Shown here: positions 2 to 64,000 of the stretch, in pieces | How positions within the stretch are numbered: position 1 is the stretch's first letter | Layout: each line of letters begins with the position of its first letter | Source: a virus | Strand: one strand, 5' to 3' | DNA length: 64,000 nucleotides | IMG/VR virus record: IMGVR_UViG_3300022561_000003 | The notes under the pieces: generated by a model | The model's input: the letters and a program-made list of their open reading frames with translations, nothing else | Told to the model about the DNA's origin: nothing | Databases searched by the model: none | Program-made: the position numbers and the translations under genes

Positions 2-247
2 AAAAAGTTAAAAATCAAAATACCTTCTATTAATATATGGTGTTATTCAGGATTTACATTTGAAGAAATATTAGAAGATTCTGATGAAAAGTTTGAATTA
101 TTAAAGCTATGTGATATTTTAGTCGATGGGAAGTTTAATATCGACAAAAGAAATGTAACATTATCATATAGAGGAAGTGACAATCAAAGATTAGTTTTAG
201 TTCAAGAAAGTTTAAAACAAAACGAATGTATTTTATATAACAATTAA
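2..247 (+). CDS. nrdG: Anaerobic ribonucleotide reductase activating protein, 3' end (5' truncated by window edge)
   Basis: Manual translation: WCYSGFTFEEI...DILVDGKF...YRGSDNQR, the typical NrdG C-terminal motifs; stop TAA at 245-247. Confidence 0.85.
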   Translation, partial: KKLKIKIPSINIWCYSGFTFEEILEDSDEKFELLKLCDILVDGKFNIDKRNVTLSYRGSDNQRLVLVQESLKQNECILYNN

Positions 248-297
248 ACAATAATTTAAGGCTGGCATCCTAAACTGCCGAAAAGGAGAAAAGGATT

Positions 298-783
298 ATG
301 GGAAAAGTATATTTTGCAAAAGTAAATAAATATGCAACAATTCCTTCCAAAGCAGATGAGGATATGGGATATGATATTTATGCTTGTTTTGATCAAGTTG
401 AAATAGCAATACAACCTGGAGAAATTAAACTGATTCCTACAGGTATTGCCTCTGCATGTAATGAAGATTACGGATTTATACTTAAAGAAAGAGGTTCTAC
501 AGGAACTAAGGGAATGTCACAACGATGTGGTGTTATAGATAGTGGATATAGAAACGAGTGGTTTGTGCCTATAAATAACACAAGTAATAAAGTAATTATT
601 ATAACAAAAAATGAAGATAGAGCAATGGCAGATTATGAACAATATTATTCTTATTCTAAAGCTATATGTCAAGCATTGTTAATACCAGTTCCCAAGACAG
701 AAATTATTGAGTTAACTGCAACAGAACTTAAAAGAATACCATCTAAAAGAGGTATGGGACATCTCGGATCAAGTGGAAAGTAG
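298..783 (+). CDS. dut: Trimeric dUTPase
   Basis: Motifs GYDIYA, IPTGIA, ERGSTG, GVIDSGYR and C-terminal RGMGHLGSSG. Confidence 0.93.
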   Translation: MGKVYFAKVNKYATIPSKADEDMGYDIYACFDQVEIAIQPGEIKLIPTGIASACNEDYGFILKERGSTGTKGMSQRCGVIDSGYRNEWFVPINNTSNKVIIITKNEDRAMADYEQYYSYSKAICQALLIPVPKTEIIELTATELKRIPSKRGMGHLGSSGK

Positions 784-792
784 AGGAGAAAT

Positions 793-1419
793 ATGGGTGG
801 AATAGGGAGATTATTAAGAATTAGACAATGTAGTGTTTGTGGAAAAGACATTGAAATACACCATAAAATAAGAATGGAAAGTACTACTATTTATTGTAGC
901 AGAAAATGTTATAAAGAAAAACTAATCGAAAAGCCAAAAGCAAATGTTAAATGTGCCTATTGCAATAAAGAGTTTTATTTAAAGCCTAGTCATTTGAGTA
1001 AAACAGATACGCATTGTTGTTCAGAAAAATGTTTGAGGAATCTAAGAAAAACAACTTATTCAGGTAAAAATAATCCTCAATATGGATTAAAAGGTATACT
1101 CAATGATAGTTGGAAAAGTGATGTTAAAATAACCCATTATGGCTATAGAAAAATTAGAGCACTAGATCATCCTTTTAAAGACATTGATGATTTTGTATTT
1201 GAGCATAGATTAATCGCAGAAAAATATCTGCTAACAAGTGAAAACAGTATAAAGGTAGGAGATAAAAGTTATTTAAAAGACACATATGTTGTTCATCATG
1301 AAGATTTTAATAGATTGAATAACAAAGTGAATAATTTGAAGGTCATGACTAAATCAGATCACATAAAATGGCATTGGCAAATAAGAGAACAATGTAAAAT
1401 ATATAAATCAGTAATATAA
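793..1419 (+). CDS. HNH endonuclease with N-terminal Cys-rich zinc modules
   Basis: CxxC...YCSRKC repeats; FEHRLIAE...VVHHEDFNRLNNKVNNL...DHIKWH. Confidence 0.85.
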   Translation: MGGIGRLLRIRQCSVCGKDIEIHHKIRMESTTIYCSRKCYKEKLIEKPKANVKCAYCNKEFYLKPSHLSKTDTHCCSEKCLRNLRKTTYSGKNNPQYGLKGILNDSWKSDVKITHYGYRKIRALDHPFKDIDDFVFEHRLIAEKYLLTSENSIKVGDKSYLKDTYVVHHEDFNRLNNKVNNLKVMTKSDHIKWHWQIREQCKIYKSVI

Positions 1420-1445
1420 AATAAAAATTAGGAGGTCATATATAA

Positions 1446-2006
1446 ATGGAAAGTAATAATTTAGAAGAATTGTTTGCATCATTATTTGGATCAGAAGAGG
1501 AACAGGAGGAGGCTAGTCAAAATTCATTTGATAGCGAATCAGGGATAGATGAAAGTATACAAAAAGTTAAAGATTTAGATTTAGAAATAGAGCGTTATAA
1601 ATCATTATATAATGAAAAGTTAGAGAAATTAAAATATGATTTAGACAATAAAACATCCAAACTTAATAATCAAAAGGAATGGTTGTTATACAATCTTAAA
1701 AATTCGGTAATGGCTGCTCCAGATAAAAAAGATTTAAAGTCTATGTATAAAAAGGTATATTTCGCTGGTGAGGTTCAAGTTAAGAAATCAGTTGTTCAAT
1801 TTATTGTTCCTGAATTTTCAGAGGAAGAAATTAATAAGAATTTCTCAGATTATAAAAAAGTTAAAACTGTTACTACACTCGATTGGAAATTATTGAAGTC
1901 GCATATCAAGATATTAAATGGCAACATAGTTAATGAAAAAACTGGTGAATTTCTTACAGATAAAATATCAACAGAAAAAACTCCAGAAACCGTAACTGTA
2001 AAATAG
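1446..2006 (+). CDS. Mu Gam-like host-nuclease inhibitor (putative)
   Basis: Acidic N-terminus, long coiled coil, then KS..KV.FAGEVQVKK, resembling the Gam family. Confidence 0.5.
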   Translation: MESNNLEELFASLFGSEEEQEEASQNSFDSESGIDESIQKVKDLDLEIERYKSLYNEKLEKLKYDLDNKTSKLNNQKEWLLYNLKNSVMAAPDKKDLKSMYKKVYFAGEVQVKKSVVQFIVPEFSEEEINKNFSDYKKVKTVTTLDWKLLKSHIKILNGNIVNEKTGEFLTDKISTEKTPETVTVK

Positions 2007-2027
2007 CTTAACAATTAAACAATAATT

Positions 2028-2048
2028 GAGGGATTAATTTCCCTCTTT
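2028..2048 (+). terminator. Rho-independent terminator-like hairpin
   Basis: GAGGGA-ttaatt-TCCCTC-TTT, directly after a 17-bp motif copy. Confidence 0.55.
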
Positions 2049-2064
2049 AATAAGGAGTGATGGT

Positions 2065-3563: not shown

Positions 3564-3592
3564 TTGACAACTGAATAATAATTTGGTAGTAT
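3564..3592 (+). promoter_or_regulatory. sigmaA-type promoter with embedded 17-bp motif
   Basis: TTGACA-17 nt-TAGTAT; motif ACAACTGAATAATAATT at 3567-3583. Confidence 0.65.
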
Positions 3593-3796: not shown

Positions 3797-3831
3797 CAAC
3801 AACTAAATAATAATTAGAAAGGAGAAATATT

Positions 3832-3933: not shown

Positions 3934-4158
3934 ATGAAAGATCAAATATATAAATTAGAAAACGAGAAATGGATTAAAACAGAAATAGAAGACATTAAAA
4001 TATATGATATCTTCAAAGTATTTAATTCAGATACTGGAGAATATGAAACTAACGCTGAAAAGGGAATTGTTAATATATGTGTCAGAGGATGTTTTAAGGA
4101 TGAAGATGGATTATCTACAATTCAAAGTAAACCATCAGAAACTACAATTAAACAATAA
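3934..4158 (+). CDS. Hypothetical protein
   Basis: ORF track; AGGAGG RBS. Confidence 0.65.
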   Translation: MKDQIYKLENEKWIKTEIEDIKIYDIFKVFNSDTGEYETNAEKGIVNICVRGCFKDEDGLSTIQSKPSETTIKQ

Positions 4159-4172
4159 TTTAGGAGGATTAA

Positions 4173-7065: not shown

Positions 7066-7272
7066 GTGGATAAAAATGAACATGTATATTGTACTAATTG
7101 TGTACACTTTGATGATAATTTAAAATGTCTTAATGATAATAGTTTATTAACAGGTAAATGTGAAAAGTGTAATTGTAAAGATTGTGACTGTGGAGATTTA
7201 GAGGATAGTATGACATTTGAATTTAGACCTAATTATATAAGGGATATCAGAATATTAACAACAACTAAATAA
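7066..7272 (+). CDS. Cys-rich hypothetical protein
   Basis: AAGGAGG RBS, GTG start; CxxC motifs. Confidence 0.6.
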   Translation: MDKNEHVYCTNCVHFDDNLKCLNDNSLLTGKCEKCNCKDCDCGDLEDSMTFEFRPNYIRDIRILTTTK

Positions 7273-7292
7273 TAATTTAAAGGAGGATTAAT

Positions 7293-7472
7293 ATGAAATA
7301 CTATCAAGGTTCTATAGTAGTAAGTGCGATGGGTAAAAGACGTTTAAAGTGTGAGTTGTGCGATAGAGATTGTTTGTCTTTAAAAATAAGAGAAGATAAA
7401 GTCAAAATATGTACATCTTGTTGGTTTGCAGATAAAGAAGCAGAAGATTTAAAAGAAAGTGGAAACATATAA
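7293..7472 (+). CDS. Small zinc-finger protein (59 aa, not in ORF track)
   Basis: AAAGGAGG RBS; KCELCDR...ICTSCW. Confidence 0.6.
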   Translation: MKYYQGSIVVSAMGKRRLKCELCDRDCLSLKIREDKVKICTSCWFADKEAEDLKESGNI

Positions 7473-7502
7473 CAATTAAATAATAATTAGGGGGAATTTA
7501 TT

Positions 7503-8722: not shown

Positions 8723-10405
8723 GTGCATACAATGGAGAAGAAATTAGAAAGAATTAAAATAGCTTGCTATATAAGAGTAAGTACAGATAAGGAAGAACAG
8801 ATTGCAAGTTTAAGTAAACAACATGAATTCTTTGAAGATATAGCTAAGCAACATGATTATGAATTAGTTAAGATTTATGCTGATGAAGGGATATCTGGTA
8901 AGCAACTTAAAAATAGAGTTGAGTTTCAACAAATGATTGTGGATGCTCGATTAGGTAAATTCAGTTTGATCTTAGTCAAGGATATCAGTCGTCTAGCAAG
9001 GAATACTTTAGATTTTTTGCAAGTTATAAGGAAGCTAAAAAAATATAATTGCGACATCAACTTTGTAAATCAAGGGATGAAATTACAAGAGACTTCAGAA
9101 GTTTACTTAACAATTCTTGCATCACTCGCCCAGGAGGAATCGTCTAAATTAAGTGAGAGAGTGAAATTTGGTAAAGATATAACTGCTAAAAAGGGAAGAG
9201 TCCCTAACTTTGTATTTGGATATGATAAAGTGGACAACTATACTCTTACTATTAATGAAGAAGAAAAAATTATAGTTGAGAAAATATTCGACTTATTTGT
9301 AAATGAAGGCTATGGAAGTGGAAAGATAGCTGGAGTATTAAATGATCTAAAAGTTATTACTAAGAGGACTAAAAAATCACAATGGCACCAGGTCGTTGTA
9401 TGTCAAATTCTTAGGAATAGATTATATGTAGGTAAAGTTGTAAATAAGCAATCTCAAGTTGTAGATTTTATTACAGGTACTAGAGAATCAATTCCATTGG
9501 AAAATCAGATTATAATAGACAGACCTCAATTTAGAATTATAGATGATATTATGTTCAATAGAGCTCAAGATATTCTTGAAGGTAGAAGAGATACGTTTCA
9601 TATGATGAATAAAAAAGAAAGTACAAAATATCCATTAAGTAACTTGATTCGATGTTCAGAATGTGGATATGCTTTTAGACGTATGCAAAGGAAATATTCT
9701 ACAGATGGAAAAACATATAAAAGATGGGTTGATAGTTTAAGAAATTCTATGGGAAAAGATGCTTGTTGCAATAAAGTAATTATTGATGAGGAAGAATTAG
9801 AAGATTATATAAAATTGCTTATACAACAAATGTTTAAAAATAAAACTAAAATTATCAAAGGGGTTTCCGCTAGACTTAAAGAAATAATTAAAGAAAAAAA
9901 TAAAGGAACTATAAATAATCAGAAAGATATTCAAGTGGAATTGGATTCACTTATGAAACAAAAACAGAAATATATGGAAATGTTTCAAAATGAGATTATA
10001 GAAATGGAAGAATTAAAAGATTATACAAAAGGTATTAATGACCAAATCTCTATACACAAAATTAGTATTCATGCTGTAAATAATGCTAATGAAATAACCT
10101 TAAACATAGAAAGTATTGTTAAGAAATATTTTGATAATATGAGTAATATTATTGAAGAAGGAGAATATACTAATGAAGCATTAAAGACACTGATAAAAAG
10201 TATAATGATATATCCTGATGGCACAATTGAAGTATCTTTAGTTATTAGTAATGAACATAATTTAAACCTAATATTACCTTTAGAACAGATTGATATTCCG
10301 TTAGAAAATACCGTTCCAAATACTAATGACAATACACACTGTACTTATAAAAAGGAACGGTTTAAAGTTGTTTTTCAAGTTGAAGGAATTTCCGATAAAG
10401 GTTGA
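8723..10405 (+). CDS. Large serine integrase
   Basis: YIRVST catalytic Ser, DEGISG, KDISRLAR, recombinase domain, zinc ribbon IRCSECG, coiled coil. Confidence 0.93.
   Translation: MHTMEKKLERIKIACYIRVSTDKEEQIASLSKQHEFFEDIAKQHDYELVKIYADEGISGKQLKNRVEFQQMIVDARLGKFSLILVKDISRLARNTLDFLQVIRKLKKYNCDINFVNQGMKLQETSEVYLTILASLAQEESSKLSERVKFGKDITAKKGRVPNFVFGYDKVDNYTLTINEEEKIIVEKIFDLFVNEGYGSGKIAGVLNDLKVITKRTKKSQWHQVVVCQILRNRLYVGKVVNKQSQVVDFITGTRESIPLENQIIIDRPQFRIIDDIMFNRAQDILEGRRDTFHMMNKKESTKYPLSNLIRCSECGYAFRRMQRKYSTDGKTYKRWVDSLRNSMGKDACCNKVIIDEEELEDYIKLLIQQMFKNKTKIIKGVSARLKEIIKEKNKGTINNQKDIQVELDSLMKQKQKYMEMFQNEIIEMEELKDYTKGINDQISIHKISIHAVNNANEITLNIESIVKKYFDNMSNIIEEGEYTNEALKTLIKSIMIYPDGTIEVSLVISNEHNLNLILPLEQIDIPLENTVPNTNDNTHCTYKKERFKVVFQVEGISDKG
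10310..10361. promoter_or_regulatory. Putative attP inside the integrase 3' end
   Basis: Perfect 8-bp inverted repeat ACCGTTCC-N36-GGAACGGT, 52 bp total, central CA at 10335-10336. Confidence 0.6.
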
Positions 10406-16386: not shown

Positions 16387-17397
16387 TTATTCTGTAAAGG
16401 CATCATCCGCATCATCTGTGTCTTCTCTAATAACATAAATTTTTGTAGTTTCTACAGATTTATGTCCAAGAAGTTTCTGTGCAGTTTCTAAAGTTTTACC
16501 TGAGTGCAATACTAAATTTGTAGCCCTTGATTCTCTAAAAAGGTGAGGATGTACTCTTCTGCCCACTATTAAAGTGAATAATTTCTTGCACCAATAATTA
16601 AAGTTTTCAGGTTGTCTTGCATGAACTCCATCTTTATCTTTACAAACAAACATAAATTCACAATCATCTTCTCCACGAACCTCTAACCATTTCTTTAGTG
16701 CTTCCATAGCCTCTTCAGAGAATTGTAATTTTCTAACAACACCAAGAGCACCATGTCCCTTACAACGAATATTATGGGTTCTATAAGAGGACACTTCTAT
16801 ACTAGTTTCTTTACCATCTTCGTCTTTTACTTTTACTGTTGATTTTTTAGGAATATAATTTGCAACTTCTTTTAAAAGTAATGAGCTCTCCGTACGCCTA
16901 CATCCTGTAGAATAGGTAAATTTAAGATATGCAAGTTTTTCCCATTCTTCCATTTCCTCTAATTTATCACATAGGAAAGTGTATTCAGTAGGAGTCAATG
17001 GTACTTTTTTATTTACTTCTCCTAATGATGGTACTTTAATTCCTTTGTTAACAAAATTTCTAAATGTAGGATACTGTTTCTGATAATAAAGCATAATGTA
17101 ATTATTTAATGTACTTACAGATGATCTTTTAAATCTAATAGCACTTTCACCTAATCCACTGTTATATAACCAACTCTGATATTTTTTATAGTCTATACTT
17201 TCAACTGTTGGTAATGGTTTGTTATCACAATATTCTCTAATATAATTTATCCAAATACGTAAAGATGAACGATATTGTGGCTTAGTTTTTGGAGATAATT
17301 CGTCACTATTATCTATGAACTCTTCAACTATTTTCTTATTGTATTCATTACACAATTGGTACATTTCCTCTGTTAAATTGGTTAATTTTTTAGCCAT
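16387..17397 (-). CDS. Tyrosine recombinase (XerC/D-like)
   Basis: TGCRR, HPHLFR, LLGH, TKIY: the R-H-R-H-Y set is intact. Confidence 0.9.
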   Translation of the reverse strand: MAKKLTNLTEEMYQLCNEYNKKIVEEFIDNSDELSPKTKPQYRSSLRIWINYIREYCDNKPLPTVESIDYKKYQSWLYNSGLGESAIRFKRSSVSTLNNYIMLYYQKQYPTFRNFVNKGIKVPSLGEVNKKVPLTPTEYTFLCDKLEEMEEWEKLAYLKFTYSTGCRRTESSLLLKEVANYIPKKSTVKVKDEDGKETSIEVSSYRTHNIRCKGHGALGVVRKLQFSEEAMEALKKWLEVRGEDDCEFMFVCKDKDGVHARQPENFNYWCKKLFTLIVGRRVHPHLFRESRATNLVLHSGKTLETAQKLLGHKSVETTKIYVIREDTDDADDAFTE

Positions 17398-19308: not shown

Positions 19309-19557
19309 TTGTGTTTCCTCCTATTTTTTTTACATAACAAAAAGGCCTGGCAAGTAGTTATCCTGCAAAGGCCTTCTATATATAATTAAGGAGGCATTTA
19401 TTCCATGCAATTCCTTAGTATTAAATTATTATTTAATTCTTACTTATAAAACCTGTGTTTTATATGATTATATTTTATGCTTCCTTATTTCATTTTGTTT
19501 TAAAAAAGGGCAATAAAAAAGCACTATTTCTAGTACATAAAGTATTACCCTTTTTAA

Positions 19558-21177: not shown

Positions 21178-21214
21178 TTCCTTTCATTAATTTAATTATT
21201 ATTTAATTGTTATA

Positions 21215-34744: not shown

Positions 34745-34929
34745 ATTATATTTCACTCCTAGTTTTATATTTTCACTCGAAATTAAATAAGGTGGCAAGA
34801 TAAGCGAGTGAAAACTTATCATTCCAAAAGGTTTATAACTCCTCCTGTTGCCACTTTTTATAATAATATTAAATTATTATTTAGTTGTTAAAACTTGTAT
34901 CAATTGCATAAATAGTCTTCCTTACCTAA

Positions 34930-34958
34930 ATTATACCAAGTTATTATTTAATTGTCAA
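34930..34958 (-). promoter_or_regulatory. Consensus sigmaA promoter with embedded 17-bp motif
   Basis: TTGACA-ATTAAATAATAACTTGG-TATAAT. Confidence 0.8.
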
Positions 34959-37711: not shown

Positions 37712-37835
37712 CTATTATTCCTCCTACAGAATATTATTATTTAATTGTCCTAATTATTTAAAAAGGAGAAATTGGCTTAGGATTGCCAACTTATCAATAA
37801 GGTCTATAAGTTCCTTATTTATCTCCCTTATATAT

Positions 37836-37864: not shown

Positions 37865-37893
37865 GTATTTTGAAAATTATTATTCAGTTGTAA

Positions 37894-40672: not shown

Positions 40673-41077
40673 TTAAACACTCTTATGTGTAAATTTAAAT
40701 GCTAATTTTGATAGACGAGATTCTAAATCCACTACATTCCCATTGATTGACTTAAAAATGTTTCCAGTACCTGTTACTGAGATTGCATTAGTTGTATAAC
40801 TTGCTATCGTATCCCAATAGTTTTTAATCTGATTGAAGAAAGCAATCTGTGAAGCAACTAAAATGTACTCTCTTTCAGTTAGGCTAAAAGTTTTATTTAA
40901 TTGTGATAAAGTTTTATTATAATCAATGTCCCAAGTATCTAATCCTTCATCAACATAGAGTCTCTGAGCACCTTCCAAAGTAAAGGTGGCATAATCTGTA
41001 TCATTAAGAACAATTGGAGTTTCTTGAAATTTAATTTTAGCTATTAATTGTGTTTTAATCTCAGATAGCAATAACAT
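40673..41077 (-). CDS. Head-tail adaptor
   Basis: Helical, position after the capsid genes. Confidence 0.55.
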   Translation of the reverse strand: MLLLSEIKTQLIAKIKFQETPIVLNDTDYATFTLEGAQRLYVDEGLDTWDIDYNKTLSQLNKTFSLTEREYILVASQIAFFNQIKNYWDTIASYTTNAISVTGTGNIFKSINGNVVDLESRLSKLAFKFTHKSV

Positions 41078-43794: not shown

Positions 43795-43848
43795 TTTTAT
43801 ATTCCTCCTAAATTTTAATAAATTATTATTTAATTGTTAATATTTTAA

Positions 43849-44289: not shown

Positions 44290-44324
44290 TTAATATTCCT
44301 CCTGTATAAATTATTATTTAATTA

Positions 44325-45722
44325 TTATATTGAATATTTCTCTCTTAGAGAACCGGGTTCTGCTCCTGATATTTTTAAATTGTCAACTAATCTACTTGCC
44401 AGTGTTACTATTGGTTTTACATCTGGAACTACTGAAGCTAAAGTAATATACTTTTCAGCAAGAACTTTATTCACAGCAACTTCATCTAAAGATTCTATTG
44501 AAGCATTTATTTCTTCAACTTCCTTTTCTGAAAGCACTTTTAAACATCTTACTTTCAGAGCAGATACTTTTTCTAGTTTTTCAGCAACCTCCTTTTCAAG
44601 TTTAAGGTTATCTGATTCTGCCTTGAATACTTGTAACTCAGATACCTCAACAGTTTTAGCTTCCAACTGTTCGCCAATTTTTACTAAATCAGCATCTTTA
44701 CTTGCAATTAAAGTATCTTTTTCTACAAGAAGATTCTCTTTCTCAGCTATAACAACATCTTTAGAAGCAATTTCTGATTTTAAAGTATCTGCTAAAGCTT
44801 GTGCTTGTTCTAATTCTTTTTGTAATTCTTCCATCTTTTCTTTTTCCTCCTCTTCTAAATTAATATTATTTATACGAGCATAAGATTTTGAAACCTTATA
44901 CATTTCGCCAAGGGTTAATGTGTCTTGAAAAATTGAGTAGTCGACTCTATATAAATCACCTTCACAATGAAGTAAAATTATATAGTTTACGGAAAACTCG
45001 ATAATATCATATTCATAATAATTTTCTAATTCTCTAAATTGTGCATAAACCTTTCTTTGAATTTGAGTTAAATCTAATTCACTAGTTTCCACAACTACTT
45101 TAGTATTTTGAAATACTTCTTCAAAAGTTTTATCCAAATTATCACTTCCTAAATCTATATTTAATGCTTCAGCAACCATCATAAACGCTTTACTTTTAGT
45201 CTCGGCCGGATGAGAAACACAACATTGTCCGAAGAGTTGCCCATTTCCTTTATCTACAACTTTATTCCCATTTTCATCCTTGGTATATTCAGAAACAAAA
45301 ACCTCACAACTGAAGTTTAAATCTTCGTTTAGGTATAATTCACCAAGAGCTTCACAAACTTTAGGATATCGTTTGAAAATTTTAGCAGTTCCTAATAGCT
45401 CCCATGAACCATCCTCAGCTTGATTTTCAGAGAAATCTGAAAAAGAACCTATTACGTCAGAAATTAATTCTCCACTTTTAGTAAGTCCATGTCCCAAATT
45501 CTTTTTACCAGACTCCAACTTACTTCTTTCAGCAGTTAAACTAACTCCACCAATATAAAAGTCTTTATTTTCAACTATTTCGTGAATGAAATTTTCAGTA
45601 AAAATACATTTATTTAAATTAGGATTACTTGTTATAAGCAATAATTTAAGAGTCATATAAATATCATTTTCATTAGATAACTCTAGAACTTTTAATTTGA
45701 TTTGTTCTACTTGCTTGTTCAT
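44325..45722 (-). CDS. Prohead protease-scaffold fusion
   Basis: SHPAE motif and acidic coiled-coil C-terminus; after the portal. Confidence 0.65.
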   Translation of the reverse strand: MNKQVEQIKLKVLELSNENDIYMTLKLLLITSNPNLNKCIFTENFIHEIVENKDFYIGGVSLTAERSKLESGKKNLGHGLTKSGELISDVIGSFSDFSENQAEDGSWELLGTAKIFKRYPKVCEALGELYLNEDLNFSCEVFVSEYTKDENGNKVVDKGNGQLFGQCCVSHPAETKSKAFMMVAEALNIDLGSDNLDKTFEEVFQNTKVVVETSELDLTQIQRKVYAQFRELENYYEYDIIEFSVNYIILLHCEGDLYRVDYSIFQDTLTLGEMYKVSKSYARINNINLEEEEKEKMEELQKELEQAQALADTLKSEIASKDVVIAEKENLLVEKDTLIASKDADLVKIGEQLEAKTVEVSELQVFKAESDNLKLEKEVAEKLEKVSALKVRCLKVLSEKEVEEINASIESLDEVAVNKVLAEKYITLASVVPDVKPIVTLASRLVDNLKISGAEPGSLREKYSI

Positions 45723-46729: not shown

Positions 46730-46907
46730 ATTTATTACCTCCGAAGTAATTATTATTTAATTCCGATTGATTTTAAAATAGGAAGCGTAAACTCGGAAGG
46801 TTCCGTTTATCAGAATAACTGAGTGTCGACTCTCAATTCATTCCTATCCCATTTATTATAATATGCAAAGCTTATAGAGTTGTTACAAAATATTTCTCTA
46901 TAGTTAT

Positions 46908-46936
46908 ATTATATTAAATTATTATTTAATTGTCAA
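46908..46936 (-). promoter_or_regulatory. Consensus sigmaA promoter with embedded 17-bp motif
   Basis: TTGACA-ATTAAATAATAATTTAA-TATAAT. Confidence 0.8.
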
Positions 46937-51131: not shown

Positions 51132-51480
51132 TATATCTCACATCCTTTCATTACAAATTTATTTTCTCCCACAAATTAATAAAAACAGAAGAGGCGAGGA
51201 GGGATCTCGCACTAATCCATAGGAGCTACCCATGAATCTCTTCTATCCTGTGAATAAGAATACTCACAATTCAATTTACTATAAAATAAACTGAATTCTA
51301 AATATTATTTAATTGTTAAATATTAAACAGAGAGAATACCAGAATCGACACCCTACGTTAAGATTCATATTCTCTCTAAAATTTGATTAGCACCAGTTAG
51401 TCCATACTAATCTTCACACTCTGTACAAAGTGTATTATACTGTCTACAGTGAGCATCACATGAAAGGTGAGAGGCTTTAG

Positions 51481-53452: not shown

Positions 53453-53561
53453 TTTAATTCTAATCTCCTCTGTTTTTTATTTAAACAAAAGAGGGTAGGA
53501 ATACAGCCTACCACTCAACTCCAAAATCGAATCACAGTCGAAAGGAGTTATTATTTAATTG

Positions 53562-53777
53562 TTATACTTCTTCTAAAATATCTTCTGAAATTCTTTTATA
53601 TAATTCTGCTATATCTTTCTCAGCTTCTCTATATCCAATCTCGTACATTTCCAAAAGTGTACATCCTAAACATCCACCTTCAGATATATTCTCAATAGCG
53701 GAATTTACTAAATCCTCTTTAGTCATTACTTCTTCCTCACAATTTTCACCACATATACATTCTTTAGAATCACACAT
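53562..53777 (-). CDS. Small Cys/acidic protein (probable start MCDSK)
   Basis: GAGGAG RBS before ATG at 53777; CLGC motif. Confidence 0.6.
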   Translation of the reverse strand: MCDSKECICGENCEEEVMTKEDLVNSAIENISEGGCLGCTLLEMYEIGYREAEKDIAELYKRISEDILEEV

Positions 53778-54004
53778 ATAAATACATCTCCTCAATTCCT
53801 TATTTTTAGAAAGTCCTCAGTTAAGGTAGAGGACAACCACCTTGCGTTAGATTTACGCATTAGACGTTAATAGAAAATGACCACCTACACTTTCTCCATA
53901 TATCATGGGCTATTGGGCAGCAGTAATTTAAAATCTTTAGTAAACTAGACATAATTTTTAGTCACTAGCAATGGATTTTAACTCATTGGTAAATTATTAT
54001 TTAA

Positions 54005-54619
54005 TTATATAATGTCATCCAATGAACAATCTTCCCCTATTATAAAATCTACAAATCCATTTGCTTTAGCTTCTTTTGCAAACATATACCATTCGGAGCC
54101 ATATTTTTTATCATATACTTTTGAAGTTAATGTACTATGAGCTAATACAAATTCTTTAGTTCTCTTTTCTAAATCTTTATAGAAGTTTGCTGTGTCAGCT
54201 AGCTTTGACATTGAATTATACATAACCGAGGAACCATCATGCAAAAGAAAGGTTGAAAAGCTTTGAGTATATCTTTTATGACCAGCTATTCCAATTAAGA
54301 ATCCCATAGAATATTCAATTCCAAGGTTAACTGTATATACAGGAGTTTTAGAAGTTAAAATTGTATCAATGAGGGAAAATCCCGTTGTCACCATGCCTCC
54401 TGGAGAATTGACATATATGATTATTGGTTTTCTATCTTCTACTGCAAAACCCTTGTCTTCTTGATTCCATGCCATGATTCTTAAAACTGCATCCTCAATT
54501 AAATTATCATCTATCTCATTATTTATTATAATTTTCCTCTGTTTTAGGTGGTCTAAATAAATTATGTCATCATAGTAATAACTCACCGATGCTTTCATTT
54601 CTTGAACTTCTTTTTCCAT
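54005..54619 (-). CDS. clpP: ClpP-like protease subunit
   Basis: YVNSPGG, YSMG (catalytic Ser), LLHDG (His). Confidence 0.8.
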   Translation of the reverse strand: MEKEVQEMKASVSYYYDDIIYLDHLKQRKIIINNEIDDNLIEDAVLRIMAWNQEDKGFAVEDRKPIIIYVNSPGGMVTTGFSLIDTILTSKTPVYTVNLGIEYSMGFLIGIAGHKRYTQSFSTFLLHDGSSVMYNSMSKLADTANFYKDLEKRTKEFVLAHSTLTSKVYDKKYGSEWYMFAKEAKANGFVDFIIGEDCSLDDII

Positions 54620-54663
54620 AATATATCTCCTTTATTCCTTGAATTATTATTTAATTGTTAAAT

Positions 54664-57631: not shown

Positions 57632-57949
57632 GAAACTTGACCTCTCTTCCTTGAATTTATAATTATTGTTTAATTGTTGTTTAAAAAAATATAATGGTAG
57701 AGCAGATATTACTCTGCCCTATTAAACCACTTTTCGTTAAAGGAGCCTATTTAATGCCGAGGCACGAAGGCTTATTAAAGGTAAGTCGAATTGCTATAAT
57801 TGACTTCAACCTCAAATTATTATTTAGTTGTATAATAAAAATTAATTCAATTATATACTATATACGGAACAGATACAAAGTTGTGAGCACGTTGATACAT
57901 CTAGTTTAGAAGGGTGCTAAAATTATTTTGCCTTGCAATTTCAGCAATT

Positions 57950-60667
57950 TTACAATAAATCACCTCTTTTTACCTTTTGATATTTATCCCCAAATATGTT
58001 AAAATCATAATTGTTTTTAATTTTTATTAACACTTCATCACTATTCATATTATCATTTTTAAAGCATTTTAATGTTTGAGGTTTTTTAGAAATATATAAA
58101 AGGTTTAAAACTAACATACTATATTTTTTAAATCCAAATTTATCATCTTTTGCATTACCGAAACTTTGTTTAAAAATAGAAAGAATAGTAGAATCATTTG
58201 GTTTTAACTTTTTTAAATTATCAACCGAGTCTTGTTTTGCTTTTCTTTCTACTGTTTTTTTAGCCTTATCATTTAAGGTACATGTTTTTGTTTTTAAGCC
58301 ATTTATTTTCTTACCACATTTTTCTATAATACTAAATATAGCTAAGGCACTATTTATTTGATATATTCCATCTAAATCTTTTGTTTTAACTAATAAATCA
58401 ATAAGTTGTTTGTGCTTCTCTCCTTTATTATAGTTTGCATTTTTAAATATTAATACTTCCTGAAGGATATCCAAGGGTGTGTTAAATTTTTCATATAGCC
58501 TATATTCACTAAAGTCAGAAATCATATTGAAAAAATTAGGCACAACCATTTTATTAGCCATCTGATCATAGGTATCTAATTCTTGTTTATATCTTATATA
58601 AGGTATTTGTTTAATTCTATTTAACTCTTTACTCATGCTTATATTATCAAATACCTTTTTACTTTTATCAATTTCTATTTGAGACATACTTGAAAGTCTA
58701 CTACTCGCCTGATATAATTCGTCAATTACTTCCTTTGATTCTCCTTTTGAGATAGCATCATTTAAATAGGAGTTAATTATTTGAGAAGTATTTACTATTT
58801 TACCTATATAATTATTACTCAACAGGATATCTAATTTTTGTAATTCTATCATGTTATTTTTCCTTGGTTTAGAACTTCCTTCAACCCTATTAATTGGAGT
58901 TGCAAAATTCTCTTCACAATATTTAGCCTTTTCAACTAATATTGGATGTGGAACGAGTAAATTTGTATCAGAATCTGTATCTTCTCCCTGGAGTCTATCT
59001 GGCATATCATTATCAAAAAAATTAACAGCCATGATATTTTTAGTTAAGTTAAACCATTTATATTCATCATGATTTTTATTTTTAGAGTACATGACATTTC
59101 CCGAATTGATGTGGGGATTTCGGGACACACAAAATTCCTGTCCATCGTTATAATAATCGCAAAATACTTCTCTACCTTGCATTATCGATTCCCCTTTATA
59201 TTTACCTATACATGCAAGTAACATTTCATATGGATTAGACATTATAGTTACATATTTAGTATCTTTGAGTCTAATTTTACCTTCTCTTAAGTGACTTATA
59301 TAATTAAAGATTAGTTTCTTTTTCATATCTTTAAATTTTGTAGTATATTGCATATCAGAATTTACTAGTAGCAAAGCGTTCATAAGTTCTGTATTCTCAT
59401 ATAAGCTAATGTCACCTTCCTCCATATTTTTCTCGAATTTTAAACTTAATTTAGCATCACAGCCTAGATAATTCCTAAATACTGCAAAGTCATTCTTAAG
59501 TAGCATAACGTATTCTCTTTCAAGTTCTGTGATAGTCATGAGCTCATCAAATGTTAAATTAGGTATACTATTAAGGAGTTGATATGTAGTTCGGTTATAG
59601 CTTCCATAGTTACCTTCCTTATCACATTTAACTACCCCAAATATATTATCTACATTTTCTTTCCAGTAATCAAAACATTCTGTAGGATTTCCATTTCCTA
59701 TCTTATATGCAAATTTTAATATCTTCAGAGAATTAGGAGTAGTAACTAATTTTATTTTACTTGCATCATAGGTATTTCCAAACATATCATTAATAGTTTC
59801 TACTCCATTTTCTTCAAACCATTTAGTCAATTTAGTGTTAAATCCACAGCATTTAACAAAATCACTTCGTAGCAACATAAATCCTTTGTCTTTTTTATCA
59901 TACTTTTCAAATACTGACTCATCAAGTAATCCCTGACCATCTGTTAGACAATTCTGTATTTTAACCATTTGATTACTAGTTGTTATTACTTTATTTTTTT
60001 CTTCTGTTACGCTGGCTAAACTATCAAACTCTAAGCCATATATATCTTCAATTATTAATATTTCTGTTTTTGGATCTAACTCAATTGTAAAATCTATTCC
60101 TGAAGATATTAAACTTTCATAAGCAAGTAGAGAAGTAAGGTCAAGCAATTCATCCTTCTCAAATATTAGTCCTAATCTACTTCTGTTTATTAGTTTATCT
60201 CGCATATCGTCTTGGATAAATAAAGCAAATCCATTTTTAGCTTTTCCAGCTCCTCTTTTATAGAAAACATATTTAATATCGTCCATAATAAATCCATTTT
60301 CATATATATATCTTCTGATTTTCTTTTTATTAGCTTTTAGTGTTCTTTTACCTTTTTTTGTTTCTCCTTCTTTATCTAACCATTCTTCTTCGGCATTCCA
60401 AATACTATAATTTTGATCAAAAGTTAAGTTTATTATTTTTTTAGTATATTGTTTATTATTAACAGTATAAAAAGTATCTGGAAACATCTTAGACATTCGT
60501 ATAGACTCTAAACTGTAGGGGATAGTGGCCGAGAATAATTTAGCCAAATCCCTATTCTTATATGTTATTTTTTTATTTTCCAGAATGTCTTTATATATGT
60601 AGCAAGCTTCTAAATTCATAACAAAAGTATTTTCTTTTTTCAAAGCCATTCCCCCTAAAATTATCAT
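57950..60667 (-). CDS. YonO-like single-subunit DNA-dependent RNA polymerase (double-psi beta-barrel, RdRP-like)
   Basis: 905 aa; LTDGQG, K.VKC, RNPH and metal-binding GEDTDSD (DxDxD); SPbeta synteny. Confidence 0.82.
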   Translation of the reverse strand: MIILGGMALKKENTFVMNLEACYIYKDILENKKITYKNRDLAKLFSATIPYSLESIRMSKMFPDTFYTVNNKQYTKKIINLTFDQNYSIWNAEEEWLDKEGETKKGKRTLKANKKKIRRYIYENGFIMDDIKYVFYKRGAGKAKNGFALFIQDDMRDKLINRSRLGLIFEKDELLDLTSLLAYESLISSGIDFTIELDPKTEILIIEDIYGLEFDSLASVTEEKNKVITTSNQMVKIQNCLTDGQGLLDESVFEKYDKKDKGFMLLRSDFVKCCGFNTKLTKWFEENGVETINDMFGNTYDASKIKLVTTPNSLKILKFAYKIGNGNPTECFDYWKENVDNIFGVVKCDKEGNYGSYNRTTYQLLNSIPNLTFDELMTITELEREYVMLLKNDFAVFRNYLGCDAKLSLKFEKNMEEGDISLYENTELMNALLLVNSDMQYTTKFKDMKKKLIFNYISHLREGKIRLKDTKYVTIMSNPYEMLLACIGKYKGESIMQGREVFCDYYNDGQEFCVSRNPHINSGNVMYSKNKNHDEYKWFNLTKNIMAVNFFDNDMPDRLQGEDTDSDTNLLVPHPILVEKAKYCEENFATPINRVEGSSKPRKNNMIELQKLDILLSNNYIGKIVNTSQIINSYLNDAISKGESKEVIDELYQASSRLSSMSQIEIDKSKKVFDNISMSKELNRIKQIPYIRYKQELDTYDQMANKMVVPNFFNMISDFSEYRLYEKFNTPLDILQEVLIFKNANYNKGEKHKQLIDLLVKTKDLDGIYQINSALAIFSIIEKCGKKINGLKTKTCTLNDKAKKTVERKAKQDSVDNLKKLKPNDSTILSIFKQSFGNAKDDKFGFKKYSMLVLNLLYISKKPQTLKCFKNDNMNSDEVLIKIKNNYDFNIFGDKYQKVKRGDLL

Positions 60668-60674
60668 TTAGTTG

Positions 60675-62069
60675 TTAGATGTATTTAAAAATAAATCCTT
60701 TATAAATATCTTTAGTACCATCACATACACCTATTATTCCAGGATGAGACAACTTAACTTTAAATAAATTTTCTGATTGCCTCCTTAATTCGGTTATGGA
60801 TTTAAATACACCTAATGATTTTTCATTTTTAAATATCTCAATTTGATGACCTATGCTGCCATTATTTGAGGACGACATTGACTTTTCTTCAATGGGATTA
60901 TAATAGCAAAGACCTAACTCTGTACCTTGCTTTAAATATCTTATAATAGTACCCACTGATAAATTCATGATTTTCCCTATTTTAGGGGCAGACAAAGTTG
61001 GATTATCTTTTTTATATTTACAAACAGCTTTCATAAGATTTCTTAGGGTAAACTCTTCACATTTTATCCAATCAATATTTAGTAAATTAAATATAGTCGA
61101 TAAACTACTATCTAATATATTTTGCTTTATAAAGTCAAGATTGCCTTTTATACAGTCTATACGAATTACTTCTATACCATTTTCACTAGCTTTTAAATCT
61201 TTATAATCATCAACTTGTTTTGACTCCTCATATGTCACACCGCTTCTACTATTATCTTTGAAATGAAATCCTCCGTCCATTTCAATAATAATATTTTTAG
61301 AAGGTATATAAAAATCATATCTTTTAAGGTGTATCCATTTTGGTGAATATTCAGTTTTGTATTCTACATCTAGTTGATTTAAAATAGCAGCCATAAGTTT
61401 AGTTGAATAACTTTGACCATCTGAACAGGAGCAAGTTACGTAACCACTACAATTTATATGATCTATTGTCGAGCCATTGTGTTTAATTTGCCCACATTCA
61501 GGACATATTGGATATATTCTTTTACCACTATTTTTAACATATAGTTTTGCTTCATCATATCCTCCTTGAAAATATTTAACCATCCAAGGGGCTGTAGTTG
61601 GTATATCATTAATTCCTTCTACTACTACTCTTGGAGTAGGGCAACAACACGAACATCCTTTACCACTTACCAAGTTATTTTCTCTAACCCATCCCTCAGT
61701 CCATCCACATTTATTGCAAGTATATTTATACCATTTCCAATTTTGAGTCTTATCTTGTTGATGCTCTCTTTCTGTAATTGTTAAATTCCTTTTATCATCA
61801 ATAAGAGTTTCTCCTATTTTATATCTAAATCCTGAATCAGGATATACCTTACTCATTATCCTACCTAATTTACATGATATAAAACCACCGGATGACATCA
61901 TAAACTCATTTCCATTGTAATTTAGGGTTAGAATTTTATTATTATATTCTATTATTTTAATTTCTCCTTTAAAAGAATCATATATAAATTGGACACTATA
62001 TCCTATTGAATTTTTCCAATCTGTCTTTGTTCCTAATTTTGGTAAATAATCTAAAAATACTTTTTTCAT
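60675..62069 (-). CDS. Zinc-ribbon / PD-(D/E)XK-type putative endonuclease (paralog of 21215)
   Basis: Near-identical blocks WKWYKYTC.KCGWT.GW, EGINDIPTTA.WM.YFQGGYDEAKLY. Confidence 0.72.
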   Translation of the reverse strand: MKKVFLDYLPKLGTKTDWKNSIGYSVQFIYDSFKGEIKIIEYNNKILTLNYNGNEFMMSSGGFISCKLGRIMSKVYPDSGFRYKIGETLIDDKRNLTITEREHQQDKTQNWKWYKYTCNKCGWTEGWVRENNLVSGKGCSCCCPTPRVVVEGINDIPTTAPWMVKYFQGGYDEAKLYVKNSGKRIYPICPECGQIKHNGSTIDHINCSGYVTCSCSDGQSYSTKLMAAILNQLDVEYKTEYSPKWIHLKRYDFYIPSKNIIIEMDGGFHFKDNSRSGVTYEESKQVDDYKDLKASENGIEVIRIDCIKGNLDFIKQNILDSSLSTIFNLLNIDWIKCEEFTLRNLMKAVCKYKKDNPTLSAPKIGKIMNLSVGTIIRYLKQGTELGLCYYNPIEEKSMSSSNNGSIGHQIEIFKNEKSLGVFKSITELRRQSENLFKVKLSHPGIIGVCDGTKDIYKGFIFKYI

Positions 62070-62105
62070 AGAATACCTCCTTTAATTATTGTTTAATTGT
62101 TGGAT

Positions 62106-62252
62106 TTAATATCTAATTAATATTTCCTTTAAATCCTCCAAACCCTCAATTTCAATATAATCCTCAAAGTCCTCCATATAACTTTCTTCATAATGATTAA
62201 CTTCTCCTAATTCAACCTCAACTTCTTGCTCATAAAAATTAATTCTCCTCAT
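62106..62252 (-). CDS. Very acidic 48-aa peptide (not in ORF track)
   Basis: GAGGT RBS 8 nt upstream; MRRINFYEQEVEVELGEVNHYEESYMEDFEDYIEIEGLEDLKEILIRY. Confidence 0.6.
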   Translation of the reverse strand: MRRINFYEQEVEVELGEVNHYEESYMEDFEDYIEIEGLEDLKEILIRY

Positions 62253-62559
62253 CTGCTTTTACCTCGATTTTAAGTATTCCAGTAAAATTGTTTATAGTAC
62301 ATTGTAGCTCATTTAATTTTGCCTTAATAACTTTTAAATCATCATTATCTAATAAAATTTTATTTGCTACATGATTCAAAACTTGTTCTAAACTAGAACA
62401 ATAAGCAGTCGTGACCCACACAATATTTCCAACGTTCTTTTCTAAAGTTTTCTTTTTCTTACTTCCTTCTGGTGTTGCCTGTACGATACTCATTTTTTGT
62501 AACATAAATTGAAATTCATCCGTTGTGATTCTTAAATCGTTCCCTAATAATAATTCCAT
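62239..62559 (-). CDS. Hypothetical protein
   Basis: ORF track; GAGGAGG RBS. Confidence 0.7.
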   Translation of the reverse strand: MELLLGNDLRITTDEFQFMLQKMSIVQATPEGSKKKKTLEKNVGNIVWVTTAYCSSLEQVLNHVANKILLDNDDLKVIKAKLNELQCTINNFTGILKIEVKADEEN

Positions 62560-62706
62560 TAATAATTCCTCCTCAAATTTTACTATTATTTCCCTTTAAT
62601 ACAGCTCTTTTACACTCTACCCTAACACTTACATCAAATAACTATTACAATACTCCTATGGCTCCATTAGCACACTTAAAATATCATTGTAATCATTAGT
62701 TATCCT

Positions 62707-62862
62707 TTAGTTCTTATAATCAGTTTTATAATTCAATATACACCATGCTAACCAGATTGTTGCCATTATATAGTTTTTATCTGCTAGACTAAAAACAAGC
62801 ATCATAATACAAAATATTATCCAAGCCACATCTATCACATTTTGCCAATTGAGTTTTTTCAC
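62707..62862 (-). CDS. Small two-TM membrane protein (51 aa, not in ORF track)
   Basis: GTG start after GGAAGGAAG; two hydrophobic segments; downstream of a sigmaA promoter. Confidence 0.55.
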   Translation of the reverse strand: MKKLNWQNVIDVAWIIFCIMMLVFSLADKNYIMATIWLAWCILNYKTDYKN

Positions 62863-62899
62863 ATAATCACTTCCTTCCATCAATTTCTTTCTTTCCTAT

Positions 62900-62928
62900 A
62901 TCATATCAAATTATTATTTAGTTGTCAA
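62900..62928 (-). promoter_or_regulatory. sigmaA promoter with embedded 17-bp motif
   Basis: TTGACA-ACTAAATAATAATTTGA-TATGAT. Confidence 0.75.
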
Positions 62929-62952
62929 TAGTATTTGGAAAATATTATTTAA

Positions 62953-63831
62953 TTATCTTAACTCTAAATTAATTTTTTTAATCTCATCACTTTGCCAAAG
63001 ATTTGAGAAACTCCTACAATAAAACAATACATGACTTTCCTTATAATCTCTTAATAAATGTTCCCATTCTCTAATTATAATTTCGTCAGTCATATGCAAA
63101 GTATATCCAAATGTCAATTCAGTGTCATGACTCATAAAATACGTAACCATTTTAGATTTATCTGTACAATCTTTATCTGAGAGGACATTCATAACTTTAG
63201 TATATTCATCTAACAGTTCTCTGCTGCAATCTAGACATTCTCCATAGTTAAACATGTCCTGAAATCCACCAAATACTCTCTCAAAGAAATCTGAACCTTC
63301 TGAGCTTAAACTGTAGTGTTTCATCATATCTAAACGAAAAGATCCAACTCCACATTCCCTTAACTCTGTTAGAAACTTCACATATATATCCTGGAGCTCA
63401 TGATTATTATAGTTCAGCATGGGCATTCCACAAGCATAATTCGTTGTCATAAATCTTGAATTGAAATCAGTACAATTAGGCGCATTAGTTAAAAAATTAG
63501 GATTACATGTTAAACTTTTATCAACGTCTTGATGAGGAATTAGGTTTCCATAATCATCTCCAGCTACATGTCTAAGGACAATATCAACCGATATAATAAT
63601 ACCTAGTTTATTAGCTTTGCTGCATAATTCTATCAAATCTGCCTTACTACCATGTCTATTACCTATTTTAAAAGACTCAGGTTGATAATCACACCACCAC
63701 GCATCACCTTTCTTAATTTCATTTATTGTAGAAATTAATATTACATCATAACCCTGAGCTTTTATTTTACTTAGATTTTTAATTATAGCCTGTAGTTGCC
63801 AAAGAAAGCAATGAAGTATAATGTGGCGCAT
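62953..63831 (-). CDS. GH13 alpha-amylase family catalytic domain
   Basis: WW.DYQP, VDIVLRH (region I), FRLDMMKH (II, Asp), YGEC (III, Glu), SHD (IV, Asp). Confidence 0.85.
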   Translation of the reverse strand: MRHIILHCFLWQLQAIIKNLSKIKAQGYDVILISTINEIKKGDAWWCDYQPESFKIGNRHGSKADLIELCSKANKLGIIISVDIVLRHVAGDDYGNLIPHQDVDKSLTCNPNFLTNAPNCTDFNSRFMTTNYACGMPMLNYNNHELQDIYVKFLTELRECGVGSFRLDMMKHYSLSSEGSDFFERVFGGFQDMFNYGECLDCSRELLDEYTKVMNVLSDKDCTDKSKMVTYFMSHDTELTFGYTLHMTDEIIIREWEHLLRDYKESHVLFYCRSFSNLWQSDEIKKINLELR

Positions 63832-64000
63832 ATTTCTTTCTCCTTTATTATTATTTAGTTGTTAAACAAGATAAGCTAACTTTTTAGTTTTTACTCCAGA
63901 ATAGTTATAAATATCACAAGATAAATGTTTCTCGTCAGATATAAAATTTTCAATCTTTGAACTTCTAGGAACTGAATTACCATACAGGCATCCTATAATA

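Follow-up and report, generated by a model that had tools for sequence, protein, structure and literature searches.

A strand-polarised 17-mer repeated across an SPbeta-like Clostridium phage as a candidate operator and stoperator array

In two described systems, an asymmetric DNA word repeated across a phage genome serves as the binding site of a lysogeny repressor. The sites of Cluster A mycobacteriophages lie in promoters, where they are called operators, and in short intergenic spaces, where they are called stoperators; their orientation is strikingly correlated with transcription, and reversing a site abolishes repression (PMC9283540). The repeated element of phage SPbeta (SPBRE) is the operator of the master repressor MrpR, as verified by chromatin affinity purification sequencing (ChAP-seq), electrophoretic mobility shift assays (EMSA) and reporters, and MrpR, also named YopR, is a catalytically dead protein of the tyrosine-recombinase fold that represses PaimR and PyosX (PMC10516654). 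SPbeta also encodes the RNA polymerase (RNAP) YonO, for which a single transcription start site (TSS) has been mapped, upstream of yonK (coordinate 2225998 in B. subtilis 168); from it the polymerase reads the 37 late genes as a single operon, the promoter sequence being undefined (PMC5467207). Here, we analyzed a 17-mer, ACAAYTRAAYAATAATT, that recurs throughout a 64,000-nucleotide (nt) stretch of IMG/VR virus record IMGVR_UViG_3300022561_000003 (hereafter the window), which belongs to an SPbeta-like Clostridium phage with a YonO-like RNAP gene. We found that the 17-mer follows the direction of transcription without exception and occurs in two contexts, inside sigmaA-type promoters and at gene junctions, and we moderately favor its being the operator and stoperator array of a putative phage repressor.

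The window covers genome positions 48821-112820 of contig G000, a viral contig of 125,827 bp that came from a glacier metagenome (GC 29%, about 76% complete by CheckV); positions below are window coordinates unless marked as genome. A copy was defined as a match to the 17-mer with at most two mismatches, and the background was taken from the shuffled window. Under this definition the window holds 32 copies against 1.35 expected (largest shuffle value, 4), and exact matches number 18 against 0 across 100 shuffles. Seven copies are on the plus strand (240-7488), 25 on the minus strand (19424-63862), and none is antisense. The original prediction had counted about 29 copies by eye, 7 on plus and 22 on minus; the eye count was slightly low, and the pattern as a whole came out stronger in our scan. 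In the whole contig we found 85 copies, 36 of them exact. The plus strand carries all 49 copies at genome 752-56292 and the minus strand all 36 at genome 68244-125047, and 85 of 85 are co-oriented with the local genes (binomial p = 5e-26). Strand balance or an AT-background frequency had been named beforehand as an outcome that would speak against the proposed regulon, and our scan, with 85 sense copies and 0 antisense genome-wide and window counts far above the shuffles, gave neither. The word is asymmetric, differing from its own reverse complement and hence not palindromic, as had also been noted, and it contains a TAA stop in two frames. Sites occur about once per 1.5 kb and at similar density in both arms, with 49 copies in the replication and nucleotide-metabolism arm and 36 in the structural arm. 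The gene map of the whole genome is simple, with a plus arm at 1-59.2 kb and a minus arm at 59.3-117 kb that are the same two arms as those of the motif polarity; they converge at the large serine recombinase gene, and a small block of antisense genes occupies genome 117.1-122.1 kb.

Alignment of the flanks split the copies into two classes. In the first (P-class), TTG, the 17-mer, exactly 3 nt and a TAnnAT hexamer make up a complete sigmaA-type promoter (TTGACA-N17-TATAAT), to which the 17-mer provides the ACA of the -35 hexamer and 14 of the 17 spacer bases. There are about 13-16 such copies genome-wide (window examples are marked in Table 1), none of them closer than 28 nt to the next start codon. 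A -10 hexamer scoring at least 4 of 6 follows 13 of the 16 copies that are preceded by TTG and 14 of the 69 others (Fisher p = 8e-6). Promoter-like sites as a whole are noisy in such AT-rich DNA, 186 being found where shuffles gave about 165. Restricting the set to intergenic sense sites whose TTGACA is perfect leaves roughly 17; in 13 of these the motif is in exact register with at most two mismatches, in one it is degenerate, and two more have a copy no more than 10 nt away. Moreover, at 7 of 13 P-class promoters a second copy stands 35-169 nt downstream, before the Shine-Dalgarno (SD) sequence, so that the two form a tandem.

The second class comprises about 60 junction copies, which lack both promoter hexamers and are squeezed between genes. 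Of the 66 non-promoter copies, 33 overlap the upstream stop codon or have it no more than 10 nt away; for 28 of the 66, the next start codon is at most 30 nt away, with the SD beginning 0-12 nt past the motif, and several copies leave only 0-2 nt before the SD. About six copies are followed by a hairpin and T run ahead of the next SD (in the window, those at 2011, 33421, 36316 and 53546). The flank alignment revealed no conserved structure alongside the motif, and there was no Rfam match. The copies that the original prediction had named ahead of the genes for capsid (43821), a neighboring small protein (44309), ClpP (54642), the beta-CASP RNase (57661) and the RNAP (60659) were all confirmed.

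Table 1. Copies of the 17-mer and other features discussed, in window coordinates
Feature	Position	Strand	Remarks
17-mer	240..256	+	exact; overlaps upstream stop, weak hairpin after it, start 41 nt on
17-mer	2011..2027	+	exact; stop 4 nt before; hairpin and short T run, then SD
17-mer, P-class	3567..3583	+	TTG, motif, N3 and TAGTAT form sigmaA-type promoter; motif at -33..-17
17-mer	3799..3815	+	exact; stop 2 nt before, SD of small open reading frame (ORF) 4 nt downstream
17-mer, junction	4144..4160	+	exact; upstream stop within motif, SD 1 nt past
17-mer, junction	7261..7277	+	exact; stop within motif, SD 3 nt past
17-mer	7472..7488	+	exact; abutting stop, G-rich SD directly after; final copy of plus arm
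Large serine recombinase gene	8732..10405	+	at convergence of the arms; opens motif-free block 7489-19423
Tyrosine recombinase gene, SPbeta YomM ortholog	16387..17397	-	catalytic R/HxxR/H/Y kept; 85% identical in FP2
17-mer	19424..19440	-	1 mismatch; first minus-arm copy past motif-free block, then hairpin
17-mer	21194..21210	-	exact; stop 4 nt before; SD and TTG start about 25 nt downstream
17-mer	33421..33437	-	1 mismatch; 3' end of gene, then intrinsic-terminator-like hairpin and T run
17-mer	34872..34888	-	exact; tandem partner, 67 nt downstream of P-class copy 34939
17-mer, P-class	34939..34955	-	perfect TTGACA-N17-TATAAT; motif is -35 (ACA) plus spacer
17-mer	36316..36332	-	exact; in final codons of gene, then terminator-like hairpin
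17-mer, junction	37732..37748	-	1 mismatch; SD 7 nt past
17-mer	37875..37891	-	exact; stop 2 nt before; separate perfect TTGACA-N17-TATAAT promoter 10 nt downstream
17-mer	40888..40904	-	weak, 2 mismatches; inside coding sequence, possibly chance
17-mer	41292..41308	-	1 mismatch; inside coding sequence, sense strand
17-mer, junction	43821..43837	-	exact; ahead of major capsid gene (42817-43794)
17-mer, junction	44309..44325	-	1 mismatch; abutting stop, SD 6 nt past
17-mer, junction	46748..46764	-	2 mismatches; tandem, 169 nt downstream of P-class copy 46917; SD 5 nt past
17-mer, P-class	46917..46933	-	exact motif; perfect TTGACA-N17-TATAAT
17-mer	51300..51316	-	1 mismatch; non-coding tRNA region
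17-mer	53546..53562	-	1 mismatch; abutting stop, terminator-like hairpin downstream
17-mer	53992..54008	-	1 mismatch; overlaps stop of ClpP-like gene
17-mer, junction	54642..54658	-	exact; ahead of ClpP-like gene (54005-54619)
17-mer, junction	57661..57677	-	exact; ahead of beta-CASP RNase gene (56168-57631)
17-mer	57815..57831	-	exact; 20 nt downstream of conserved post-RNAP box; structured leader after it
Diverged copy of post-RNAP box	57851..57871	-	outside 17-mer family; candidate late/RNAP promoter
YonO-like two-barrel single-chain RNAP gene	57950..60643	-	897 amino acids from TTG at 60643
17-mer	60659..60675	-	1 mismatch; stop of upstream gene abuts; SD of RNAP gene 2 nt past
17-mer, junction	62084..62100	-	exact; SD 2 nt past
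17-mer, P-class	62909..62925	-	TTGACA-N17-TATGAT; first promoter of RNAP-containing operon
17-mer	62940..62956	-	weak, 2 mismatches; 31 nt upstream of P-class copy 62909
17-mer, junction	63846..63862	-	1 mismatch; abutting stop, SD directly after

Several further repeats and neighbors of the 17-mer were noted. The P-class promoters share an initially transcribed aTAGGnAAGG after the -10 and resemble copies of a cassette of about 50 bp (window 34900-34939 and 62870-62909, both minus strand; genome 35597, 114744 and 116028). Downstream of several copies stands a common leader with a hairpin, TAGTGTGCnATGTAAAGCA...; this leader makes up a second family of repeats, which the FP2 prophage has as well (L001:2923-2990, 5928-5995 and 7049-7120, genome coordinates in the left arm; also L130:795-840). 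The non-coding region of 1 kb that holds the copy at 51300 also holds two minus-strand tRNA genes, 51617-51689 and 51736-51809, that reach the Rfam gathering score. Two blocks are free of the motif. One, at 7489-19423, has the serine integrase, GIY-YIG and HNH homing endonucleases, a winged helix-turn-helix (wHTH)/RepL-like protein, a GDSL lipase, the YomM-like recombinase and an amidase. The other is the antisense block at genome 117137-122105, with an FtsK-like ATPase and small proteins of no assigned function.

SPBRE and the 17-mer have much of this architecture in common. The SPBc2 record has 11-12 SPBRE copies of ACAAATACAAAWAATATGTATA, which are the MrpR ChAP-seq peaks and all point in the direction of the gene that follows. 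At yonP, yorE, yorZ, yosX and yorM the element takes the form TAG-ACA...N14...TATAAT, beginning at the ACA of the -35 and running through the spacer; at yopV, yopM and yonX-2 it abuts the SD, and PyonX has one copy upstream and one downstream of the promoter. Both elements are therefore asymmetric and gene co-oriented, share the ACA register in promoters, and have SD-abutting copies and tandem pairs flanking a promoter. The two phages are also related, with YonO, YonJ, YomM and YopX homologues and a serine integrase common to both. However, SPbeta has about 12 SPBRE copies, at early or regulatory promoters only and with none in the late operon, whereas here the 85 copies cover both arms and also stand between structural genes. 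The likeness is architectural only, and the 17-mer was rejected as a sequence homologue of SPBRE (p = 0.45).

The resemblance to the stoperators of actinobacteriophages, typified by the L5 gp71 sites and by the TipsytheTRex repressor structure (PMC9283540), is similarly close. Those sites too are asymmetric, number in the dozens, lie in promoters (overlapping the -35) and short intergenic spaces, follow transcription strictly, have a similar density, and differ in word between related phages. All the properties by which stoperators are recognized at the sequence level were found for the 17-mer, namely asymmetry, more than 20 sites, placement in promoters and short intergenic spaces, and orientation with transcription. 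In contrast to the GC-rich 13-bp stoperators, the word here has 17 bp and is AT-rich, and it occurs in a 126-kb SPbeta-like phage of a low-GC Clostridium host that has its own RNAP and in which we found no homologous repressor. Our literature search found no report of stoperators in Firmicute phages.

We then compared relatives of the phage. RNAP relatives at 48-86% identity are many, in Clostridium genomes and cold-environment metagenomes. Locus L128 (RNAP 86% identical) has the same 17-mer at orthologous junctions. The complete FP2 provirus (G002; RNAP 77%), integrated in the cultured lysogen Clostridium sp. FP2, has about 65 sites of a variant, ACAATTAAACAATAATA(ttataa), of which 48 are forward and 17 reverse according to arm (control, 5 and 2), with one exception to the polarity, at 3 mismatches. 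L129 (RNAP 79%) has about 11-20 copies of AAATAATTAATAA, all sense, L124 (RNAP 49%) has AAAATATTAAA, and G007 (RNAP 70%) has 22 exact copies of ATATTAAAATAA. The L124 and G007 words precede either a TTGACA -35, by 3-7 nt, or an SD, which they adjoin, and the promoter-associated word of L129 is likewise immediately upstream of the -35. By position weight matrix (PWM) comparison, the words found in this phage, in FP2 and in L129 are mutually related (p = 0.001 and 0.006, both at offset 0). In G003-G007 (RNAP 68-72%) the 17-mer itself is at control level only, and the complete 178-kb genome G005 (RNAP about 70%) has no abundant repeat of any kind. A gene-content profile of G000, G002, G003, G005 and G007 showed that the RNAP is the one module common to all, while only the motif-rich FP2 has the backbone in common with this phage (capsid 88%, portal 77% and numerous small genes). 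It is with the backbone, and not with the RNAP module, that the motif travels. Judging from these genomes, high-copy polar words are recurrent but lineage-specific, diverging as immunity specificities do, and the RNAP family does not require them. G001/L052, a fragment of the same phage and so not independent, was not counted as a relative. No comparable repeat was found within the 30 kb surrounding the RNAP of MT835469 (34% identical), and a motif scan of IMG/VR gave mostly single chance matches in AT-rich contigs. In G003 (IMGVR_UViG_3300031578_000004) we noted a different repeat of about 23 bp, TGGTTGCACGGGAACTTGTTCAG, in 5-7 copies, all on one strand.

The reading that we favor is that a putative sequence-specific phage DNA-binding protein, most likely the master repressor of lysogeny (immunity), recognizes the 17-mer as DNA. 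At P-class copies the bound protein would occlude host RNAP; at junction copies it would act as an orientation-dependent, stoperator-like roadblock to elongation that blocks read-through between genes; and operator and roadblock copies together would keep both prophage arms silent. We infer, in other words, that a protein binds the 17-mer, that this protein is the repressor and that junction copies stop elongation. We favor this because 13 of the roughly 17 perfect-TTGACA promoters carry the motif in register, because TTG and the -10 co-occur around it, and because of the tandems and the density in both arms. The architecture shared with SPBRE, the stoperator-like properties, the temperate nature of the phage and the lineage-specific words that track the backbone point the same way, and relatives with their own words in the same two contexts are what one would expect if immunity specificities diverge. 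The original prediction had listed, as an alternative, an asymmetric repressor operator akin to the repeated element of SPbeta, and it is this alternative that the evidence favors.

Several results weigh against this reading. Profile, atlas and phylogenetic-profile searches did not find the repressor gene in a contig that is about 76% complete. A tblastn search with YopR/MrpR against this genome and the loci of 11 relatives gave no match at E <= 1; there was no match to HTH_3 (the XRE repressor family) or to a sigma factor; Pfam and PHROGs searches of about 60 proteins yielded no DNA-binding candidate, and neither did an atlas screen of the two proteins shared only with FP2 (137 and 211 amino acids). 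The 85 sites far exceed the dozen or so of SPbeta, and PWM similarity to SPBRE was no better than that of column shuffles for this phage (p = 0.45) or for the FP2 variant (p = 0.46). The roadblock seems redundant at the six or so copies just upstream of terminator-like hairpins. A search of sequencing runs recovered the phage in four DNA runs (glacier metagenomes) and in no RNA run. In addition, the DNA-level evidence for a repressor is equally evidence for a DNA-binding regulator of another kind, and the sequence would look alike for a lytic switch or an activator.

Searches for regulators also covered YopP and other SPbeta regulators, for which tblastn gave no match in this genome. Two proteins of recombinase fold are encoded, one XerC/D-like and the other the YomM ortholog with intact catalytic residues. 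We considered the latter, a divergent 336-amino-acid recombinase, as an inactive repressor of MrpR type and rejected it, because its catalytic residues are kept and it is the YomM ortholog.

The presence of a YonO-like gene, on which the original prediction had built, held up. The 905-amino-acid ORF is truly, if distantly, homologous to YonO (tblastn to SPBc2 yonO: 23.6% identity over 52% of the query, E = 3e-9), and its DxDxD triad D555/D557/D559 is invariant among 11 homologues, some of which carry the RNA-dependent RNA polymerase (RdRP) Pfam family PF05183. The protein probably starts at the TTG at 60643 (P0001, 897 amino acids) and not at ATG 60667, because that ATG sits within motif copy 60659-60675. 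A GGGGG SD lies upstream of the TTG, and the database protein (897 amino acids) begins there. The RNAP gene keeps 68-77% identity across phages with hardly any other genes in common with this one, and it behaves as a conserved module moving between backbones. Behind it, 66-116 nt past the stop codon, many lineages have a single-copy box, TTCCTTGTATATGrTATATAA, with a hairpin before it; its core, CTTGTATATG, was found with at most one substitution in 15 of 35 loci against 1.1 expected (including L129:12772 and L128:12752). Past the box, the order in this phage, L128 and FP2 is the same: an AT-rich stretch of about 20 nt, a first copy of the 17-mer, a structured leader (z = -2.3) and a second copy, which is followed by an SD. 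This position parallels that of the YonO TSS and non-coding RNA (ncRNA) downstream of yonO-yonN in SPbeta. The box is a candidate late-operon promoter and a better candidate than the 17-mer for the promoter of the RNAP.

In SPbeta itself, the YonO TSS interval of about 250 nt was bounded by the mapping primers in the supplement of PMC5467207. This interval holds ATTAAACAATA, an 11-nt exact match to the core of the 17-mer (rough chance estimate about 0.04). The match is not kept in L209, whose YonO is 86% identical, and strong conservation starts about 45 nt further downstream at the presumed ncRNA. We treated ATTAAACAATA as a chance match, since it is not conserved in L209; it is still the best single point for reading the 17-mer as the promoter of the RNAP. 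In the yonN-yonK intergenic region (L131:22950-23230), conservation with the relative with 86% YonO identity begins abruptly at AACTGCGGCTGGTCATTGC..., which probably marks the 5' end of the ncRNA heading the YonO-dependent operon, and a short CATTCnGAC word stands just upstream of it. Footprinting of 52 SPbeta-branch loci downstream of yonO found no common non-coding word, and our literature search found no later paper defining a YonO promoter.

In the light of these observations, it is quite unlikely that the YonO-like RNAP uses the 17-mer as its promoter or core specificity element and begins transcription at or just past the 3' end of the motif. This was the main inference of the original prediction. 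In its favor, the genome encodes a YonO homologue, and the 17-bp motif is asymmetric, co-oriented and upstream of about half of the genes. Promoters of T7-class RNAPs are indeed alike in length (17 bp upstream of +1), asymmetry and multiple co-oriented copies before genes, with an RNAP gene in the genome; however, the RNAP here is of the two-barrel YonO type and not T7-like, and the sole mapped YonO promoter is single-copy and does not resemble the motif. The closest motif variants do occur in phages with the closest RNAPs (86%, 79% and 77%), and ATTAAACAATA does fall in the interval of the mapped SPbeta start, but that match is lost in L209, and a separate single-copy box occupies the position expected of a YonO-type promoter. 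Complete phages with RNAPs of about 70% identity lack the motif, G003-G007 having it at background and G005 having no abundant repeat. The copies are not limited to late genes, being spread at equal density over the two arms (49 and 36), whereas the YonO-dependent genes of SPbeta are the late operon only, served by one TSS without such an element. Several copies leave 0-2 nt and hence no leader before the SD, promoter copies pair with a downstream copy in tandems, and promoter-to-terminator arrangements exist. One version of the proposal superimposes sigmaA features on the P-class copies, which would allow both early (host) and late (phage) expression; even so, neither the in-register embedding in nearly all strong sigmaA promoters nor the constant placement of the word next to the -35 that G007 and L124 show is explained.

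A DNA-binding regulator other than a lysogeny repressor, such as a lytic-cycle switch, an activator or an architectural protein, we consider unlikely. In its lytic-switch version, the protein would shut host-RNAP early promoters once the phage RNAP takes over. The words of G007, L124 and L129 directly upstream of the -35 are at the position used by class I and class II activators and UP elements, and our searches turned up no lysogeny repressor. An activator should not be needed at the linked promoters, however, which already have a consensus -35 and a good -10, and it would leave the junction copies without a nearby promoter no role; the experimentally defined analogues, MrpR with SPBRE and L5 gp71, are lysogeny repressors. 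The probability is lower still that the 17-mer acts in RNA, as a processing site (cleaved, for example, by the phage beta-CASP RNase or one of the host), as an enhancer or operator of translation ahead of the SD, or as an antitermination box. This would fit the strict sense polarity, the many copies 0-12 nt before an SD, the several copies between a stop codon and a terminator hairpin, and the beta-CASP/RMMBL RNase gene that adjoins the RNAP gene. But P-class copies at -33..-17 lie outside their own transcripts, being upstream of the transcription start, as are the promoter-associated copies upstream of the -35 in G007, L124 and L129, so that the RNA-level alternative of the original prediction lost ground. 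The spacing to the SD varies over 0-12 nt with no conserved structure or Rfam match, and relatives with variant motifs have no nearby beta-CASP gene.

Other classes of repeated element were rejected. On architecture, Chi-like or KOPS/SRS-like polar sites would not be confined to junctions or in -35 register, ParR/centromere repeats are clustered and not dispersed, and RfaH-type ops sites are only downstream of promoters. Generic UP elements or AU-rich translational enhancers cannot account for 36 exact copies of a 17-mer. A further known system for comparison is that of the T4-type PeSL cassettes, which are repeated intergenic early promoters of sigma70 type with a stem-loop. They are defined by promoter and hairpin, without a conserved spacer word and without promoter-less junction copies. 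P-class copies resemble them in that they have in common the promoter, a conserved start region, ATAGGnAAGG, and often a 5' hairpin.

The phage itself has no near-identical relative among GenBank phages by megablast. Its ties to the SPbeta lineage are YonJ (45% identical), YomM (30%), YopX-like proteins and the YonO homologue. The plus arm is a replication module with NrdD, Pol III alpha, ligase, a DnaB-like helicase and RecJ, and the minus arm carries terminase, portal, capsid and tail genes. Genes that bear on lifestyle encode a large serine recombinase, Xer-like and YomM-like tyrosine recombinases, a ParM-like actin and an FtsK-like ATPase. By its gene content this SPbeta-like Clostridium phage is temperate, because it encodes recombinases and a ParM-like protein and because its FP2 relative is an integrated provirus. 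The ParM-like actin gene is at L004:9956-10816 (minus strand), and the relative L129 has genes for a TubZ-like tubulin and Rep3 replication (4722-5897 and 6972-8159); the ParM-like, TubZ-like and Rep3 genes suggest that members of the group can live as plasmid prophages besides integrated ones. The anaerobic ribonucleotide reductase NrdD is split by an intein with a LAGLIDADG homing endonuclease (L003:5253-8561, genome 45253-48561).

If the 17-mer were after all a promoter of the RNAP, possibly doubling as a repressor operator, it would be the first promoter consensus for the YonO RNAP family, and early and late arms alike would be wired to the phage's two-barrel polymerase. As things stand, the abundant motif is separated from the RNAP question, and the post-RNAP box becomes the place to seek a promoter of the YonO family. 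If the 17-mer is instead the array of a repressor, as we favor, polar stoperator arrays would extend beyond actinobacteriophages, having either arisen in SPbeta-like Clostridium phages or been retained and much enlarged there, and the SPBRE/MrpR system of SPbeta would be the small end of the same design. This reading offers a testable regulon of 85 sites here and about 65 in the lysogen Clostridium sp. FP2, and it predicts lineage-specific immunity words, of which at least five variants were seen. It would also make the 17-mer a portable, orientation-dependent transcription-blocking element for low-GC Firmicutes.

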